A DNA stretch of 64,000 nucleotides, taken from the NCBI GenBank assembly GCA_030059675.1, contig JANVYQ010000001.1, positions 64,001 to 128,000 on the forward strand, given 5' to 3'. Shown in pieces: positions 50,373-57,824 of this stretch. Positions within the stretch are counted from its first letter, which is position 1; every line of letters begins with the position of its first letter. The notes beneath the pieces are model-generated. The model made no database searches. It had not been told where the DNA came from and saw only the letters and a program-made list of their open reading frames with translations. Both the position numbers and the translations under genes were made by a program. The DNA comes from Candidatus Pelearchaeum maunauluense. GTDB taxonomy: Archaea; Thermoproteota; Nitrososphaeria_A; Caldarchaeales; Caldarchaeaceae.

Positions 50373-50966
50373 TTGGTTTGGAGGAGGGCTGTCGTAAAGA
50401 TAGAAGGGGATGTTCAGCGTGTTGGGTATCGCTATATAGTTGCGACGCTTGCTAGACGCTTCTCCGTAAGTGGGTTAGTCAGAAATCTTGATGACGGCAG
50501 CGTTGAGGTCATTGCGGAAGGCGAGGAAGAGAACTTAAACGCGTTCATACAGAGTATAAAGATTAACGAGCCGCCCATAATAGTTGAGTCGCTGAACGTT
50601 AGGTATGAAAAGCCTACTAGGGAGTTTAGGACATTCAGGATAGTTACGGGGAGTCTTGAGGAGGAGATGGTGGAGGGCTTCGGGATAGGAGCAGGCTATC
50701 TACGCTTAGTCCTAGACCTACAACGGGAAATTCTAGGCTTACAGCATGAAAACATAAAGCTGCAGAAGGGGATGCTTAACGAGGTTAGCGAGTTTAGAAA
50801 AGACCTGCGAGTGCTTATTGATGAGCGTATAAGCCGTGTTGAGGATGATGTGTGGAAAATAAAGGCTAAGCTGGTTATTGACCAGCCTGCCTACGCTCCT
50901 CCCTTCTCTAGTTGGGCTTCTCGCCTCCCTCTCCTTCCTGCTGTAGGTCTTCAGGCGCTGGCTTGA
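50373..50966 (+). CDS. Acylphosphatase-family protein with C-terminal coiled-coil extension
   Basis: GDVQRVGYR, G.VRNL.DGSVEV.AEG; C-terminal EEMVEGFG plus a heptad-rich tail. Confidence 0.78.
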   Translation: MVWRRAVVKIEGDVQRVGYRYIVATLARRFSVSGLVRNLDDGSVEVIAEGEEENLNAFIQSIKINEPPIIVESLNVRYEKPTREFRTFRIVTGSLEEEMVEGFGIGAGYLRLVLDLQREILGLQHENIKLQKGMLNEVSEFRKDLRVLIDERISRVEDDVWKIKAKLVIDQPAYAPPFSSWASRLPLLPAVGLQALA

Positions 50967-52287
50967 CTATCACCTTATTATTCTTCAGCTCTACTACCAC
51001 CATGTCGCCTTCTTTCAAGCCCAGCATGTTGGCGAATTCGCTGGGTATCGTTACCCGCCTGCCTGAGAGCATTCTTTGTAGGCGTTTATGCGAGTTTAGG
51101 CGCTGGCCTTCTTCCTGTGGGTGTTGTGGTGTTTCTGTCGGAGCTGCCTGCTGGGGCTGTGGAGGCGGCGGAGGTGGTGGCGTCGCCTGGCTTGGCTGAG
51201 CCGCCTGCTGCGCTGCGCGCTTCTCGCGCCGCCTCTTCAGCAGGTAGGTCGCCGAGGTGAACGCGGCAAGCCCTATCAAGCCAGCCGCCTGGCCGTAGGC
51301 GATATTCTTGGTGAGGATATTCTCCTGGCTGAGCGAGTTATAGCTGAGCAGGAGCGACTCATACGCCTTCTTAGACTCGTCAAGCTGGTTCTTGAGCTGG
51401 CCAATCTCCCTGAGAGAGTCTTCATGCCTCTTGCTTAGGTTGGTATAGACCTCGCGGAGCTGCTGGTAGGAGGCTTGCAAGCTGTTATACTCGTCTGTGA
51501 GCTGCCTATAATCCGCGAGCAACTGCTCATAGTTCTGGGCTAGGACGCTATTCCTCTGGCGGAGGTCGTCGTATCTCTCCTGGAGCTGGCGGAGGCCTTC
51601 CAGCGCCTGCTTATACTGGGCGTCTAGCTGTTTATACTCCTCCGTGAGCGCATCGTAGCTGGCTTTCAGGCTGTTATACTCGTTTTCGCTCGCGGCCAAG
51701 TCTCCCCTGAGCCTGTTAATCTCAGCGTTGAGCGCTTCAATCCTAGCATTTAGCGCGTCTATCTTAGCCCGCAGGGAGTTTATCGTGGCTTCAAGCTGGT
51801 CTATCAGCCTTTTAGCGCTATTCAGCTCGCCCACAACCTCGTCGTAGGTCTTCTCACGCGCCACAGCCAAGAACCACCTGTAGGTGAGCGGCTTAGCAAC
51901 AGTGTCGCGCGTGTAGTTGGCGAAGAGCTCAGCGGATACGCTGGGGTCAGCGCGCACAACACTTGGGACGCAGAGGGTATAGCTCTTCTGAACAAACCAG
52001 CCTGCCATGACGTTGATGTCAGACGCCAGCGTGTCATCCAGCAATGTTTGGGTGTATGAGTTCGCCTGATACTTCACGACTAGGCGTATCTTGTCTATGT
52101 AGATGTCTCCCAGAGCCGTTGCGTCAAATATGAGCTGGAAGCAAGCGCCTATCTTTACCTCAGGCGGGTATGTGAGTGTGAATTTTATGCTCGCGTCGTC
52201 CACCACTAGGGAGAATGCTTGCGCAGCGGTGTTTGGGAGGAGCGCCAGGGCTAGCAGCACCAGCATTACCCCTACCTTCTTCATCAT
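50908..52287 (-). CDS. Signal peptide + beta-rich domain + long coiled coil + TM + Pro/Gln linker + C-terminal AbrB/SpoVT-like DNA-binding domain
   Basis: N-terminal signal peptide; about 180 aa of heptads; TM followed by KRRREKR; PPPPPPP; GRRVTIPSEFANMLGLKEGD.VVV. Confidence 0.8.
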   Translation of the reverse strand: MMKKVGVMLVLLALALLPNTAAQAFSLVVDDASIKFTLTYPPEVKIGACFQLIFDATALGDIYIDKIRLVVKYQANSYTQTLLDDTLASDINVMAGWFVQKSYTLCVPSVVRADPSVSAELFANYTRDTVAKPLTYRWFLAVAREKTYDEVVGELNSAKRLIDQLEATINSLRAKIDALNARIEALNAEINRLRGDLAASENEYNSLKASYDALTEEYKQLDAQYKQALEGLRQLQERYDDLRQRNSVLAQNYEQLLADYRQLTDEYNSLQASYQQLREVYTNLSKRHEDSLREIGQLKNQLDESKKAYESLLLSYNSLSQENILTKNIAYGQAAGLIGLAAFTSATYLLKRRREKRAAQQAAQPSQATPPPPPPPQPQQAAPTETPQHPQEEGQRLNSHKRLQRMLSGRRVTIPSEFANMLGLKEGDMVVVELKNNKVIVKPAPEDLQQEGEGGEKPN

Positions 52288-52363
52288 CTCTAGGTAAGAC
52301 CTGCGTATCGCATTTAAGGCTTTTAGACGCGCTTTAACATAGCGGATGGCGGTGTTAGGGTTG

Positions 52364-52413
52364 ATGATATCACATGACGCTACGCGACATCACATAGTGC
52401 CGCGTGATGCCAT
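52364..52413. repeat. Five tandem 10-bp quasi-palindromic units (RYRRYRYYRY; consensus RTGAYRYCAC)
   Basis: ATGATATCAC ATGACGCTAC GCGACATCAC ATAGTGCCGC GTGATGCCAT. Confidence 0.8.
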
Positions 52414-52602
52414 AACCCGTTATCCCCGCCTATCTTCGCCTCGCGGCAGCTGGAAAATCTTTCAAAACAGCACCTCCGCTACGCAGGTATTTCCAACAAG
52501 AATAACTAGAGCTAACAACGGTATTACATACCCGCATGAATTTCCTTCGCTTCATAGCCAGCCGTTTACAGAACTGTATTCCATGGAGGCGGCGGGGCTG
52601 AG

Positions 52603-53013
52603 ATGAAACCAATCGCTGAAAGAATCGCCGAATTGCGGGCTAATTTGCGGAAAGACCCAGTTTTCAAGCTTCTCCGCTCCAACTCAAACCTCACGGCCAA
52701 GCAGGTTGAGACGCTGCTGTTTGATGTGGTGGTGGAGCAGTATGGGGCGAGGCTAACCGCTCAGGAGAGAGCAGCCCTGCGGGGCGTTTCCAAGGGCGCT
52801 TTCGTCAGGACTAAGAAGCAGGCGGAGCGGAATATTACTAGGGCACTGTTTACGGTTATGCTCGCGTCTTATCTTGGTATTCTACGCCTGCCAAGCTATC
52901 GCTGGCTTCTGGAAATAGGTGAGCTCCTACAGGAAGGGGATGCTGAGAGCCTCAAGCGCGCTGTGCAGGCGTTGAGCGAAAACCTGGCGGGGCGGGAAGA
53001 TGGCGGAGATTGA
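52603..53013 (+). CDS. Conserved hypothetical protein with HTH-like segment
   Basis: SNLT.KQ.E.L...ERA..RGVSKGAFVRT..QA. Confidence 0.72.
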   Translation: MKPIAERIAELRANLRKDPVFKLLRSNSNLTAKQVETLLFDVVVEQYGARLTAQERAALRGVSKGAFVRTKKQAERNITRALFTVMLASYLGILRLPSYRWLLEIGELLQEGDAESLKRAVQALSENLAGREDGGD

Positions 53014-53467
53014 GACGCTGGTCTTTGCAGCGCTATTCCTGGCGCAGACCCTGATTTACGTGATTCTCCTCAGGAGAGTAATGACATCACGCGGCATCAC
53101 GGCTGAGACGCGCGAAGCCTTGGAGAAGCTACGCAGGATTGAGGAGACGCTGGGCAGGCTACAGCGGCCAGCCAGCATGCCTGTCCCACCGCCTCCACCA
53201 CCGCCACCGCCGCCTGAGGAGCCAGCCCTCCCAGACTCGGCGATAGAGGCACTAAAGCTCCTCCGCGACTCAGGGCCTATGACGTCAACTGATGTCAGCC
53301 GCGCACTTGGCCGTAGTAGGGAGCACGTCTCGCGCGTGATGAAGGCTCTTTACACCCGTGGCCTAGTCTCGCGGAGTGGGAAGCCGTTTAGGTATGAGCT
53401 TACCCCTAGGGGCGCTGAAGTCCTTGACATCACAGGACATCACGGTAGGCAGAGCCGCGTAAAGTAG
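53000..53467 (+). CDS. Membrane-anchored winged-HTH protein (N-terminal TM, short coiled coil, poly-Pro linker, wHTH)
   Basis: LVFAALFLAQTLIYVILL; PPPPPPPPPP; GPMTSTDVSRALGRSREHVSRVMK.L..RGLV.R..KPF.Y.LT. Confidence 0.82.
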   Translation: MAEIETLVFAALFLAQTLIYVILLRRVMTSRGITAETREALEKLRRIEETLGRLQRPASMPVPPPPPPPPPPEEPALPDSAIEALKLLRDSGPMTSTDVSRALGRSREHVSRVMKALYTRGLVSRSGKPFRYELTPRGAEVLDITGHHGRQSRVK

Positions 53468-53519: not shown

Positions 53520-54203
53520 TTGCGGCAGGTGGTTTACGACGATGAACAGTGGCGTCTGCTCCGCGCGTTTAGGGCTAGGGCTCTCCGTGTCATGGAGGCA
53601 ATAGCTCCACTCGGCTTCTCGCCCATAGTGTATGGGAGCGTGGTTAGGGGGGATGTTAAGAGGACAAGTGACCTTGACATATTCATACCGCAGACAGTGC
53701 CGACGCAGTTGCTTGAGCTGGCCTTGGCTAATGCTGGCTACGAACCAGTGCGCCGTGTTTTGGTTCAGGCTACGCCCTCTCACGCAGTTAAGGCGTATAT
53801 CTACCTGAGCGAGATCGACACCGTCTCCATCCCCCTCACCAGCCTCACGCGCGACGAGCTTGGGCTCTACCAGCTGGCAGGCTCTCTGGAGCTTGAGGAG
53901 CTGCACTGCGATTTGCGCAGGCCTGGGATAAACAAGCAGCTCATGGTCATCGTGCCCACCGATTACGGGCATTTGGAGTTCCCAGCCACGCGTAATGTTG
54001 ATGAGGCGGCGAAGACGCTTCAGGTAAGCCCAGAGATTCTCAGGAACCGTATCCGCGTTCTTACGCGGCGGCGTGAGGCGGGGAGGACTGGCGTGTATAG
54101 GTCTATTGAGCTCACGCCAGGCCAGAGCTTTGAGGAGGTCTTTGAACGCTTGTTGGCGGAGAACCCTGCTCTTAGGAGGCGTGTGAGGAGGAGTTTGGCC
54201 TGA
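53520..54203 (+). CDS. Archaeal Pol-beta superfamily nucleotidyltransferase (conserved, uncharacterised)
   Basis: YGSVVRGDV...SDLDIF, QATP...KAYI, PG.NK.L, GRTGV. Confidence 0.82.
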   Translation: MRQVVYDDEQWRLLRAFRARALRVMEAIAPLGFSPIVYGSVVRGDVKRTSDLDIFIPQTVPTQLLELALANAGYEPVRRVLVQATPSHAVKAYIYLSEIDTVSIPLTSLTRDELGLYQLAGSLELEELHCDLRRPGINKQLMVIVPTDYGHLEFPATRNVDEAAKTLQVSPEILRNRIRVLTRRREAGRTGVYRSIELTPGQSFEEVFERLLAENPALRRRVRRSLA

Positions 54204-57749: not shown

Positions 57750-57824
57750 TGGGGCCGCCCGGATTTGAACCGGGGACCACGCGGGCCCAAGCCGCGTATC
57801 ATAGCCATGCTAGACCACGGCCCC
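57750..57824 (-). tRNA. tRNA-Pro(TGG), intronless, CCA not encoded
   Basis: GGGGCCG...CGCGG CT TGG GC CCGCG...GGTTCAAATCC...CGGCCCCA. Confidence 0.96.

Follow-up and report, generated by a model that had tools for sequence, protein, structure and literature searches.

A phased array of palindromic decamers beside the gene of a membrane-anchored winged-helix protein in Candidatus Pelearchaeum maunauluense: a probable operator

Which protein, if any, reads a run of five head-to-tail, self-complementary decamers in an archaeal intergenic region, and why do further copies lie inside a neighbouring coding sequence? This question is raised by a locus of Candidatus Pelearchaeum maunauluense, located within a stretch of 64,000 nucleotides that was analysed as a whole (hereafter, the window); its features are collected in Table 1. 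The original prediction, made from the sequence of the window, proposed phased binding sites for a cooperatively spreading dimeric protein, of a centromere- or iteron-like kind. Here, the decamers are interpreted as double-stranded DNA binding sites, probably an operator array, for the membrane-anchored winged-helix protein that the locus encodes; through them this protein would regulate its own gene and probably also the divergent gene.

Table 1. Features of the decamer locus, with coordinates counted along the window
Feature	Coordinates	Strand	Remarks
Divergent coiled-coil/AbrB gene	50908..52287	-	Possible second target of the array
TATA-like box CTTAAAT	52312..52318	-	Precedes the divergent gene's ATG by about 26 nt; assignment by sequence pattern only
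Decamer array	52364..52414	.	Intergenic; five head-to-tail 10-bp units, consensus RTGAYRTCAY
TACA-N-TGTA element GTTTACAGAACTGTATTCC	52564..52582	+	Directly upstream of orf136
orf136	52603..53013	+	All-helical; weak sigma-70 region 4 / EnfR-like HTH
Membrane-anchored winged-helix protein	53000..53467	+	MarR/TrmB-like wHTH
Tandem pair ATGACATCAC GCGGCATCAC	53081..53100	.	Winged-helix gene, codons 28-34, directly after the membrane helix
Tandem pair ATGACGTCAA CTGATGTCAG	53279..53298	.	Within the HTH-encoding part of the winged-helix gene
Tandem pair TTGACATCAC AGGACATCAC	53424..53443	.	Near the 3' end of the winged-helix gene

The intergenic array and its rarity in the genome

The letters from 52364 to 52413 are, in order, ATGATATCAC ATGACGCTAC GCGACATCAC ATAGTGCCGC GTGATGCCAT. 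All five decamers match the pattern RYRRYRYYRY, as the original prediction had it, and the match extends to 52414, giving a run of 51 nt. Units 1, 3 and 5 are good matches to RTGAYRTCAY, itself a 10-bp palindrome, while units 2 and 4 are degenerate and keep the purine/pyrimidine pattern. The start of the divergent gene lies 77-127 bp from the array and orf136 lies 190-239 bp from it, the array being upstream of both.

The genome (1,786,704 nt, 1.79 Mb) was scanned in all 10 phases of (RYRRYRYYRY)n. The 51-nt run was unique, with two runs of 22 nt as runners-up and three of 21 nt after them, one of which is located at 53081-53101. By our arithmetic, about 1e-8 runs of 51 nt are expected in random sequence of this size. 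Within the window, the 20-nt double pattern was observed 5 times against 0.04 expected from 100 shuffles, with four matches inside the array and one at 53081. Perfect single RTGAYRTCAY sites occur at chance frequency (17 genome-wide, 11-19 in 10 shuffles). Sites with at most one mismatch number seven in 1.2 kb at the array and winged-helix gene, against four in the next-best window of the genome. This near-perfect cluster and the tandem copies are peculiar to the locus, with all three of the pairs having summed mismatches of at most 2 located here, as are five of the seven with at most 3. On contig C17, two perfect sites were found 717 bp apart, the same spacing as from 52364 to 53081; they belong to tandem ABC-ATPase paralogues, and the agreement was set aside as a coincidence.

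The claim that the units differ by transitions only was borne out. Across the six fixed positions of RTGAYRTCAY, the five array units carry 8 transitions and 0 transversions, and comparison of the array's two 20-nt halves with each other gives 9 transitions and 0 transversions. The local ratio of transitions to transversions against the congeneric genome is 128:69 (fraction 0.65), so that mutation bias alone explains a transitions-only array poorly (0.65^9, about 0.02 by our arithmetic). This bears on a reading in which the array is a functionless, decaying remnant of a recent tandem duplication and owes its regularity to transition-biased mutation. Transitions-only differences would suit such a remnant, and the 51-nt array is without a within-genus comparison because the sole congeneric contig stops 95 bp upstream of orf136. 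A metagenome scan for closer relatives with the intergenic array returned 20 loci, in which orf136 identity never exceeded 53%. However, the local transition fraction is just 0.65, orthologous loci from across an order and from other classes again show the motif and its tandem layout, and the in-gene copies exceed synonymous shuffles (see below); a mere remnant is hardly credible.

Self-complementarity could also be exploited in RNA, with the units pairing in the transcript and G-U pairs tolerating the transitions. On the minus strand, 52350-52430 has a fold of -32.1 kcal/mol (z = -2.9), in a hairpin that is lengthened by the flanks GGGTT/AACCC, and the changes in units 2 and 4 (CT and AG) mirror each other; furthermore, GTGAT and ATCAC half-sites could pair in the leaders of the long-form genes described below. 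However, tandem palindromes are always self-complementary, and given the purine/pyrimidine pattern, a count of 16 Watson-Crick pairs out of 25, which rises to 22 once minus-strand G-U pairs are included, is within expectation. The plus-strand fold is unremarkable (z = -1.5). All four central pyrimidine-purine steps are found, CA included, which leads to A-C mismatches between copies, and copies are distributed upstream of presumed promoters and in both gene contexts. In Rfam 15, the sole match of the window was tRNA-Pro at 57750-57824. An RNA-level element is thus very improbable.

Two further candidates were set aside. For a C/D-box sRNA at the array, inspection by eye of both strands revealed no D boxes at the right spacing, and Rfam gave no match. 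Z-DNA or histone positioning was not favoured as the cause of the purine/pyrimidine pattern, since the unit is not strictly alternating.

The locus in related archaea

Three genes at the locus encode DNA-binding candidates. orf136 was assigned to no Pfam family and is present as a single copy in 144 of the 401 sampled genomes of the phylum; its family, with 301 cluster representatives, is uncharacterised. The winged-helix protein comprises an N-terminal membrane helix, a short coiled coil, a poly-proline linker and the wHTH domain. In distant relatives, a long form is observed, in which the coiled coil reaches about 130 aa. The divergent gene product contains a signal peptide, a coiled coil, a membrane helix, a proline-rich linker and a C-terminal AbrB/MazE-type domain. 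A predicted complex of the winged-helix protein with the orf136 product scored 0.00 against a mark of 0.32, a result that counts neither way.

orf136 and the winged-helix gene form a conserved pair, and the motif clusters at orthologous loci across Caldarchaeales, as well as in distant Thermoproteota (Bathyarchaeia and others). Among 17 relatives with 2.5-kb flanks, the interval from -300 to +900 contained 62 matches and the flanks 24 (densities of 3.0 and 0.36 per kb, respectively), and 20 metagenome loci gave 79 matches against 16, counts that overstate independent support since the compared loci are related. The most repeated words at the locus were 8-mers of the motif (26 relatives, source genus excluded). 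The 10-bp phasing recurs as well, with a second unit (at most 2 mismatches) at +/-10 bp of 17-22% of 106 sites, compared with a background of 0.46%, an enrichment of about 40-fold. Neither of the two refuting outcomes named in the original prediction was observed: tandem matches are not spread over the genome at background frequency, and the motif is present at orthologous loci.

The distribution of sites follows the winged-helix gene. Distant loci with an SREH/TREH-type partner contained 53 sites in 11 loci, the eleventh (L081, family f26) having been classed as such only once its partner gene was found. Two loci with an SKEH-variant partner contained 3 sites, and a single site was found in the 7 loci that encode orf136 without an SREH-type winged-helix partner. 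The strict form GTGAYRTCAC gave a similar picture, with 2 of 2, 2 of 3, 3 of 4 and 2 of 6 genome-wide copies at the locus in four distant genomes, and 0 copies in one genome without the winged-helix partner.

These counts bear on whether the sites are bound instead by the sigma-70 region 4-like HTH of the orf136 product or by the AbrB-domain protein, two candidates whose presence at the locus weakens the case for a winged-helix binder. orf136 is always adjacent to the sites and its structure model suggests an HTH-like core, while the AbrB-domain gene is the nearest to the largest array; moreover, 10-bp palindromes with abutting half-sites suit small dimeric folds. However, loci with orf136 and without the SREH-type gene are almost devoid of sites, and orf136 has a distinct conserved upstream element of its own. 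This TACA-N-TGTA sequence is conserved phylum-wide, including in lineages without the winged-helix partner, and is an element separate from the 10-bp motif. The AbrB-domain gene is adjacent in three genera only (g1, g2 and g4), whereas the motif is phylum-wide. Binding by either protein in place of the winged-helix protein is distinctly unlikely.

Copies inside the winged-helix gene

The three in-gene pairs are all present as predicted. An exact purine/pyrimidine fit holds for 53081-53100 only; the pair at 53279-53298 departs from it at 3 positions and that at 53424-53443 at 2. The statement that the copies encode different peptides agrees with the codon alignment, in which they read VMTSRGIT, MTSTDVS and LDITGHH. 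In family f1, the core GAYRTCAC of the first pair is retained at the aligned position, and the second pair is retained as well; family f4, whose peptide differs too, lacks the latter. Within this second pair, the Ser codon in the motif is TCA in 14 of 14 family-f1 loci. The third pair, a lineage-specific gain, also occurs in the congeneric genome and, in part, in one further relative (L017).

Synonymous-codon shuffling was applied to 18 of the 20 loci. In-gene copies numbered 56, compared with 19.4 +/- 3.3 in 1000 shuffles (maximum 31), and perfect in-gene sites 19, compared with 2.8 (maximum 8); in family f4, in-gene copies were not above the shuffle frequency. The excess over synonymous shuffles indicates that selection acts on the DNA, as the original prediction had supposed. 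The gene is also a clear example from nature of coding sequence that carries a regulatory DNA code on top of the protein code, with synonymous constraint in the regulator's own gene. Against the operator reading, 4 of the 11 units are located deep in coding sequence, a position that does not readily suggest an operator.

Candidate binder, site placement and the origin region

The recognition helix of the winged-helix protein, S-R-E-H-V-S-R, is invariant (pattern S-R-E-H-x-x-R). The protein profile aligns it to "SREMVGR" of Vfr (E 0.002), the longer segment S-R-E-H-V-S-R-V-M-K of the window protein corresponding to S-R-E-M-V-G-R-V-L-K, and Pfam HTH_Crp_2 matches at 2.4e-06. In CRP, Arg180, Glu181 and Arg185 read TGTGA, and the decamer half-sites (Y)RTGA and TCAY(R) resemble the GTGA half-sites of these proteins. 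However, the window protein is membrane-anchored and without a cyclic-nucleotide-binding domain, and its half-sites are separated by 2 bp rather than 6. Membership in the CRP-FNR family was rejected, since the HTH alone matches, the N-terminus consists of a membrane helix and linker, and the half-site spacing is 2 bp. The half-site geometry is not CRP-like, given that CRP uses GTGA-N6-TCAC, and the half-site spacing of 5-6 bp, too close for an ordinary winged-helix dimer (about 10-11 bp), argues against the operator reading.

We infer a winged-helix binder that acts cooperatively and negatively, in the following way. Each unit would consist of half-sites RTGA and TCAY flanking a central pyrimidine-purine step of free base choice. 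The half-sites would be read by the S-R-E-H-x-x-R helix as CRP and Vfr read GTGA, and the central step, together with the purine/pyrimidine pattern of the weak units, may be read as DNA shape. The spacing of units and half-sites by one helical turn would place several proteins on one face of the DNA and allow joint binding. The ancestral role would be negative autoregulation of the winged-helix gene.

This role is suggested by long-form relatives, in which sites lie between a TATA-like box and the winged-helix start codon; archaeal repressors block RNA polymerase in this interval. Among the nine long-form loci printed, the leader in six comprises a TATA-like box, 17-20 nt, GTGAT-N2-GTGAT, 3-5 ATCAC half-sites at about 11-bp spacing and the start codon, the promoters being assigned from sequence only. 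In two others (L091 and L086), the sites abut the start codon and no TATA-like box is recognisable, while L087 (family f10, with an intervening gene) is without the arrangement of box and half-sites. A putative TATA-like box preceding the winged-helix gene in distant relatives is similar to that of the divergent gene, and the array is located 45-95 bp upstream of the latter box. A point against the operator reading is that the source genome has no motif site at the presumed promoter of orf136. The two genes may have come to overlap in Caldarchaeales, with sites kept or re-created in coding sequence and upstream of orf136, and the position of the array in the source genome could also allow control of the divergent gene. 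The winged-helix gene carries sites within and around it both here and in relatives. Overall, placement around promoters suits an operator better, and a centromere or tether is the less likely possibility.

The proposed system resembles autoregulated MarR/TrmB-type winged-helix repressors in the wHTH fold, in palindromes at the protein's own gene and in the relatives' sites between TATA-like box and start codon. It differs in that a membrane helix and coiled coil replace the MarR dimerisation helices, no ligand-binding part is evident, and the 10-bp sites form phased arrays of up to five units, many of the copies being located within genes. ToxR, CadC and ArnR/ArnR1 are membrane-bound one-component transcription factors with phased repeats as targets. 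The tethered DNA-binding domain and the putative phased targets recall them, but those proteins carry extracellular sensor or HAMP domains, while the window protein has merely 3-10 residues outside the membrane helix. A search of the literature pairing GTGACGTCAC with "archaea" returned no article, and searches on Aigarchaeota or Thaumarchaeota transcription factors, Bathyarchaeota cdc6 and membrane-anchored segregation proteins yielded nothing on the winged-helix family (supplements were outside the scope). This family comprises 4364 archaeal "MarR family" proteins at E <= 1e-5, which are uncharacterised. The locus offers a testable protein-DNA pair for these thousands of proteins and for the partner orf136, and with motif and recognition helix conserved across Thermoproteota classes, one binding experiment would annotate the element in hundreds of genomes.

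Iterated-repeat operators can double as centromeres, as do those of omega (pSM19035 heptads), MetJ (met-boxes) and AspA (pNOB8). These systems share short head-to-tail units with a dimer on each, cooperativity along the array and arrays at the binder's gene, and AspA, an archaeal wHTH protein, is one that spreads from a palindrome. Omega and MetJ belong to the ribbon-helix-helix type and use 7- or 8-bp units, in contrast to the period of 10-11 bp, the proposed wHTH binder and the lack of a partition ATPase here. The centromere-like part of the original prediction did not hold in this respect, with no partition NTPase of the ParA/SegA, ParM or TubZ type next to the locus. Its iteron-like part failed as well, with no Rep-like gene, 10-bp palindromes instead of 17-22-bp direct repeats, flanking intergenic DNA that is not AT-rich and a conserved chromosomal locus. 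An archaeal oriC was also rejected, since the decamers are unlike the ORB-like repeats upstream of cdc6 in L082 and L083.

A tether near the replication origin was considered in its own right. The winged-helix protein would bind the site cluster and hold the origin region at the membrane, either to segregate the chromosome or to position the origin. Its autoregulation would then be secondary, a situation familiar from many centromere-binding proteins. The in-gene sites would let the protein, inserted into the membrane during synthesis, capture the very DNA that encodes it. The architecture, which combines a membrane helix, a coiled coil (about 130 aa in long-form proteins) and a DNA-binding domain, is consistent with this role, as is the near-complete restriction of the site cluster to the binder's own gene and its surroundings. 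Additionally, the distance between orf136 and the best Cdc6_C match is 2.3-10.3 kb, with a median of 3.7 kb, in 40 of 40 genomes outside Caldarchaeales, from 11 families, although the 53 genomes of this survey were hand-picked for long contigs from the 144 with orf136. In two Bathyarchaeia loci, ORB-like inverted repeats are observed 0.7-1.1 kb past the winged-helix gene, upstream of cdc6. AspA, the archaeal plasmid centromere binder, was a fold match at rank 19, among many other small wHTH proteins. The model for such a tether is RicO, whose nine sites are spread over about 700 kb and which carries a C-terminal amphipathic helix; here, one tight cluster of 3-11 sites occupies about 1.2 kb at the gene that encodes the protein, which is archaeal and has a true N-terminal membrane helix.

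However, no ParA/SegA-type NTPase was found beside the locus, either in the window or in the Bathyarchaeia and family f6 neighbourhoods. In the source genome, 152 kb separate the array from cdc6 and from the ORB-like element there (C2:268157, the sole such element with a G-string beside cdc6), and across Caldarchaeales the distance from orf136 to cdc6 ranges from 11.7 to 152 kb. In family f22, where neither the winged-helix gene nor the motif was found, orf136 nevertheless stays beside cdc6, so that the linkage may belong to orf136 or to an old gene order and not to the motif. The ORB region itself contains no motif copies, and the GC skew of contig C2 was too weak for placing the origin. A tether with autoregulation as its by-product is unlikely. 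Equally doubtful is its fuller version, an ATPase-free minimal centromere in which protein and GTGAYRTCAC cluster tether the origin, ancestrally about 1 kb from an ORB-bearing oriC by orc1/cdc6, from Bathyarchaeia to Caldarchaeales. To our knowledge, no chromosome segregation system has been described for these lineages, and the orc1/cdc6 linkage together with the membrane anchor raises the question of whether the origin region is fixed to the membrane in these archaea.

The gene neighbourhood in Bathyarchaeia and family f6 includes NAD synthase, CN hydrolase, an HD protein, small HTH proteins, Cdc6 and PolD DP1, while the other neighbours in the window encode an acylphosphatase, a nucleotidyltransferase and Pelota.

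Organization of the repeats and their gene neighbourhood

Two divergent units flank the array, which falls in the 315 bp between them. Its decamers all match RYRRYRYYRY, as the original prediction stated, and the match, as read in the sequence, carries on to 52414. The units vary by transitions alone, which had also been claimed; because transitions and transversions at this locus stand at 128:69 against a congeneric genome, mutation bias is insufficient to explain this. The doubled 20-nt pattern was found five times in the window (0.04 expected), four times in the array and once at 53081. Furthermore, the 51-nt purine/pyrimidine run is unique in the 1.79-Mb assembly when all ten phases are scanned. 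The runners-up measure 22 nt, and one of the three 21-nt runs ranking after them genome-wide (53081–53101) belongs to the same locus. The three pairs noted inside the winged-helix gene all exist, but only the first keeps the exact purine/pyrimidine pattern.

Coordinates of the repeats and neighbouring features (window positions)
Feature	Position	Strand	Description
Divergent gene	50908–52287	-	Signal peptide, ~150-residue outer domain, long (~180-residue) coiled coil, membrane helix, proline/glutamine-rich linker, C-terminal cytoplasmic AbrB/MazE-type DNA-binding domain
Array	52364–52413		Five head-to-tail decamers
GTAWTAC palindrome	52521–52527		7 bp; GGTATTAC here
orf136 upstream element	52564–52582		18–19 bp; G(G/T)(T/A)TACAAAAnTGTAT(C/T)C
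orf136	52603–53013	+	Without Pfam family; overlaps winged-helix gene
Winged-helix gene	53000–53467	+	155 residues; N-terminal membrane helix, short coiled coil, eleven prolines in a row, MarR/TrmB-like winged helix
In-gene pairs	53081–53100, 53279–53298, 53424–53443		Within winged-helix gene
Nucleotidyltransferase-fold gene	53520–54203	+	Weak NTP_transf_2 match, HTH-looking C-terminal part

The unit consensus, RTGAYRTCAY, is a 10-bp palindrome in which the half-sites RTGA and TCAY flank a central pyrimidine-purine step, for which CG, TG, CA and TA were all found. Perfect single copies are not enriched genome-wide (17, vs 11–19 in ten dinucleotide shuffles). Copies with at most one mismatch number seven within 1.2 kb at this locus, and the second-best window of the genome holds four. 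Tandem matches were predicted to exceed the genomic background, and they do concentrate here: the locus contains 3/3 of the genome's pairs at a 10-bp offset with ≤2 summed mismatches and 5/7 of those with ≤3, compared with 0–1 and 0–8 pairs, respectively, at other offsets genome-wide. The special feature of the motif at this locus is thus its clustering and tandem order, not the number of single copies. Two perfect copies on contig C17 (11336 and 12053), 717 bp apart like 52364 and 53081, were rejected as a coincidence, representing the same conserved peptide in two tandem ABC-ATPase genes.

The divergent protein has an unusual layout and is a second membrane-tethered DNA-binding protein at the locus, with a proline linker of the same kind as that of its winged-helix neighbour. 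The nucleotidyltransferase-fold gene is found downstream in this genus only and lies outside the conserved pair.

Conservation in Caldarchaeales and selection on the DNA

The orf136/winged-helix pair is single copy and present in 29 of 41 relatives, with both genes present and adjacent in all 20 loci fetched. The motif was found at every one of these loci, at positions that are not always the same. This genus carries the intergenic array and the three in-gene pairs. In family f4 (Terraquivivens), the stretch from about -264 to -104 ahead of orf136 carries 20-bp composites (RTGACRTCAC + RTARCRTCAM), with further copies at +49 and +484. In Caldarchaeum, copies occur inside orf136 (+123, +136, +150, +178), where the winged-helix gene begins (~+477) and as a tandem pair in its HTH-coding part (~+617 to +657).

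Across 17 loci with 2.5-kb flanks, 62 motif matches fell within -300..+900, compared with 24 in flanks 3.3 times as long; the 20 metagenome loci, several of them near-duplicates, gave 79 in the locus and 16 in the flanks. In 26 relatives from outside this genus, every one of the most frequently repeated 8-mers at the locus is a fragment of the motif, and GACATCAC/GTGATGTC occurs 39 times inside the locus vs twice in the flanks. Additionally, of 106 strong units, 17–22% have a partner unit (≤2 mismatches) at a distance of exactly 10 bp, against a background of 0.46%. This conservation excludes the view that the repeats are a functionless remnant of duplication.

Selection on the DNA itself, another part of the original prediction, was borne out by synonymous-codon shuffling of each gene (1000 shuffles preserving protein sequence and codon usage) in 18 of the 20 loci, leaving out a locus that was incomplete and another interrupted by an in-frame stop. 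In-gene matches numbered 56, vs 19.4 ± 3.3 after shuffling (maximum 31), and perfect sites 19 vs 2.8 (maximum 8), although these counts overstate independence because the loci are related. The signal comes from family f1, in which 11 of 12 loci singly reach p ≤ 0.035; in-gene copies of f4 are not above its synonymous shuffles. At the HTH-coding pair, the Ser codon within the motif is TCA in 14/14 f1 loci; the six f4 loci, from which the motif is missing at this place, have TCT, TCC or TCA. Protein identity between the genera compared is only 35–50%, and motif sites were gained at non-homologous places in separate lineages. On sequence comparison, the repeats are a real, non-random and conserved DNA element, predicted to bind protein and overlaid on coding sequence.

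Two further observations concern these loci. The winged-helix orthologue of one Caldarchaeum assembly (L012, G015:C110) contains one in-frame TAG, for which sequencing error, pseudogene or read-through are possible. The GTAWTAC palindrome (GGTAATAC elsewhere) is located ~-95 to -75 before orf136 in Caldarchaeales, conserved in families f1 and f4, with the upstream motif copies on one side and the start of orf136 on the other.

Association with the winged-helix gene and candidate readout

A profile search with orf136 yielded 301 cluster representatives, and one copy of the gene is present in each of 144 genomes among the 401 sampled from the phylum. Twenty loci from Thermoproteota outside Caldarchaeales fell into three groups. 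Eleven encode a long form of the winged-helix protein, made up of a membrane helix, a ~130-residue coiled coil and a wHTH; its recognition helix again reads (S/T)-R-E-H-T-A-R, and database records from Bathyarchaeia and others title the protein "MarR family transcriptional regulator". These contained 53 motif matches in -700..+1100, compared with three at two loci with an S-K-E-H variant lacking the membrane helix and one at seven loci without a partner inside 1.5 kb in any frame. A genome-wide search of four genomes from partner-less families with the winged-helix profile gave nothing, or weak matches to larger proteins only. In four distant genomes, 2/2, 2/3, 3/4 and 2/6 of all copies of the strict form GTGAYRTCAC fall in the locus, and a complete genome without the winged-helix partner has none. 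Judged by this presence and absence, the motif goes with the winged-helix gene and not with orf136. The same co-occurrence counts against orf136 or the AbrB domain as binder, which is disfavoured.

The predicted structure of orf136 consists of helices throughout (pLDDT 83.5) and bears only a weak resemblance to sigma-70 region 4 and to EnfR, an archaeal factor. The gene has its own conserved upstream element, TACA-N-TGTA, different from the 10-bp motif. This element, 15–45 nt before the start, recurs in almost every family of the phylum (L069–L080, L062–L066), including those without the winged-helix partner, and in family f2 both arms co-vary (GACA...TGTC replacing TACA...TGTA). Its form suggests a palindromic operator or a 5' hairpin belonging to orf136 itself. 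The family f10 homologue (L074, L075) has an S-K-E-H recognition helix, no membrane helix and an extra gene between it and orf136; in place of the palindrome cluster, TAGCATCA occurs twice as a direct repeat with 11-bp spacing, ~25 nt before the start of the homologue.

The winged-helix profile aligns the recognition helix with those of Vfr and CRP (SREHvaRllKnL vs SREMVGRVLKSL, E 0.002), and none of its Ser, Arg, Glu, His, Arg and Lys residues varies across 19 sequences. CRP reads TGTGA through the corresponding Arg-Glu-x-x-x-Arg. Since the helix is CRP-like and the half-site is (Y)RTGA, we infer that the winged-helix protein binds the motif, and its recognition helix would read GTGA/TCAC directly. 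In geometry the site departs from that of CRP: 2 bp separate the half-sites here and 6 bp in CRP, so the two readers would sit on nearly opposite helix faces. The central step is free in base yet always YR, and weak units keep the purine/pyrimidine class and not the bases, which suggests that double-stranded DNA is read by its shape or deformability. Alternatively, the self-complementary array could act by folding in a transcript. The minus strand does fold well (z = -2.9), but this is expected of any tandem palindrome array and the pairing is no better than the purine/pyrimidine pattern alone predicts; moreover, CA-centred copies would mismatch, and copies are located outside likely transcripts.

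Site layout, putative regulation and the cdc6 neighbourhood

In 6/9 long-form loci compared for site layout, a shared arrangement precedes the winged-helix gene: a CTTAAA-type TATA-like box, 17–20 nt, GTGAT-N2-GTGAT, then three to five ATCAC half-sites at ~11-bp spacing reaching the start codon. An extra site falls exactly on the orf136 stop codon, and another 375–630 bp upstream of orf136. At L091 and L086, sites abut the start codon with no recognisable TATA-like box; L087 (f10, with the intervening gene) is without the common layout. Archaeal repressors act at sites over the transcription start and leader, and because the sites cover the putative start and leader, negative autoregulation by the winged-helix protein would be the most economical reading. 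The two genes overlap in Caldarchaeales, their gap having been lost; copies then persist within the coding sequence near the junction, and upstream of orf136 new ones appear. Caldarchaeum has a tandem GTGATGCNGC-GTGATGCAAA directly next to an A-rich box, 45–70 nt before orf136.

In this genome, the array stands 45–95 bp upstream of the divergent gene's TATA-like box, as assigned by sequence. The two other genera with this gene have smaller site pairs in a similar place, 24 nt and 37 nt beyond the box; given its position and these pairs, the array may regulate the divergent gene. Most probably, the repeats would serve as an operator array for a membrane-anchored winged-helix regulator that is widespread and uncharacterised. 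A literature search found no publication on this winged-helix family or motif.

A tether or centromere formed by the winged-helix protein and its sites appears unlikely. The cdc6 linkage, membrane anchor and coiled coil favour it; they recall RicO-ricS and RacA-ram. Orf136 lies 2.3–10.3 kb (median 3.7 kb) from the best Cdc6_C match, the main orc1/cdc6 gene, in 40/40 genomes outside Caldarchaeales, from 11 families; for part of this survey, 53 genomes were hand-picked for long contigs. Two Bathyarchaeia loci share the order NAD synthase, CN hydrolase, orf136, winged-helix gene, small HTH gene, non-coding stretch (~640 bp or more), cdc6 and PolD DP1. Inverted or direct repeats in the non-coding stretch (L082 8053–8258, L083 8056–8523) resemble archaeal ORB elements. 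Within Caldarchaeales, the distance is 11.7–152 kb in 14/18 genomes, the two lying on separate contigs in the other four; here they are 152 kb apart, and next to cdc6 there is an ORB-like element (C2:268157). Against a tether stand the lack of a partition ATPase, the absence of the motif from the ORB region, and the persistence of orf136 beside cdc6 even without the winged-helix gene. Judged by this gene order, orf136 is a conserved origin-neighbour gene. In family f22 (L089), where the SREH-type gene is missing and the genome contains no GTGAYRTCAC, another protein of 138 residues with a wHTH-like C-terminal end and no Pfam match is encoded between orf136 and cdc6 (L089 6833–7249, + strand).
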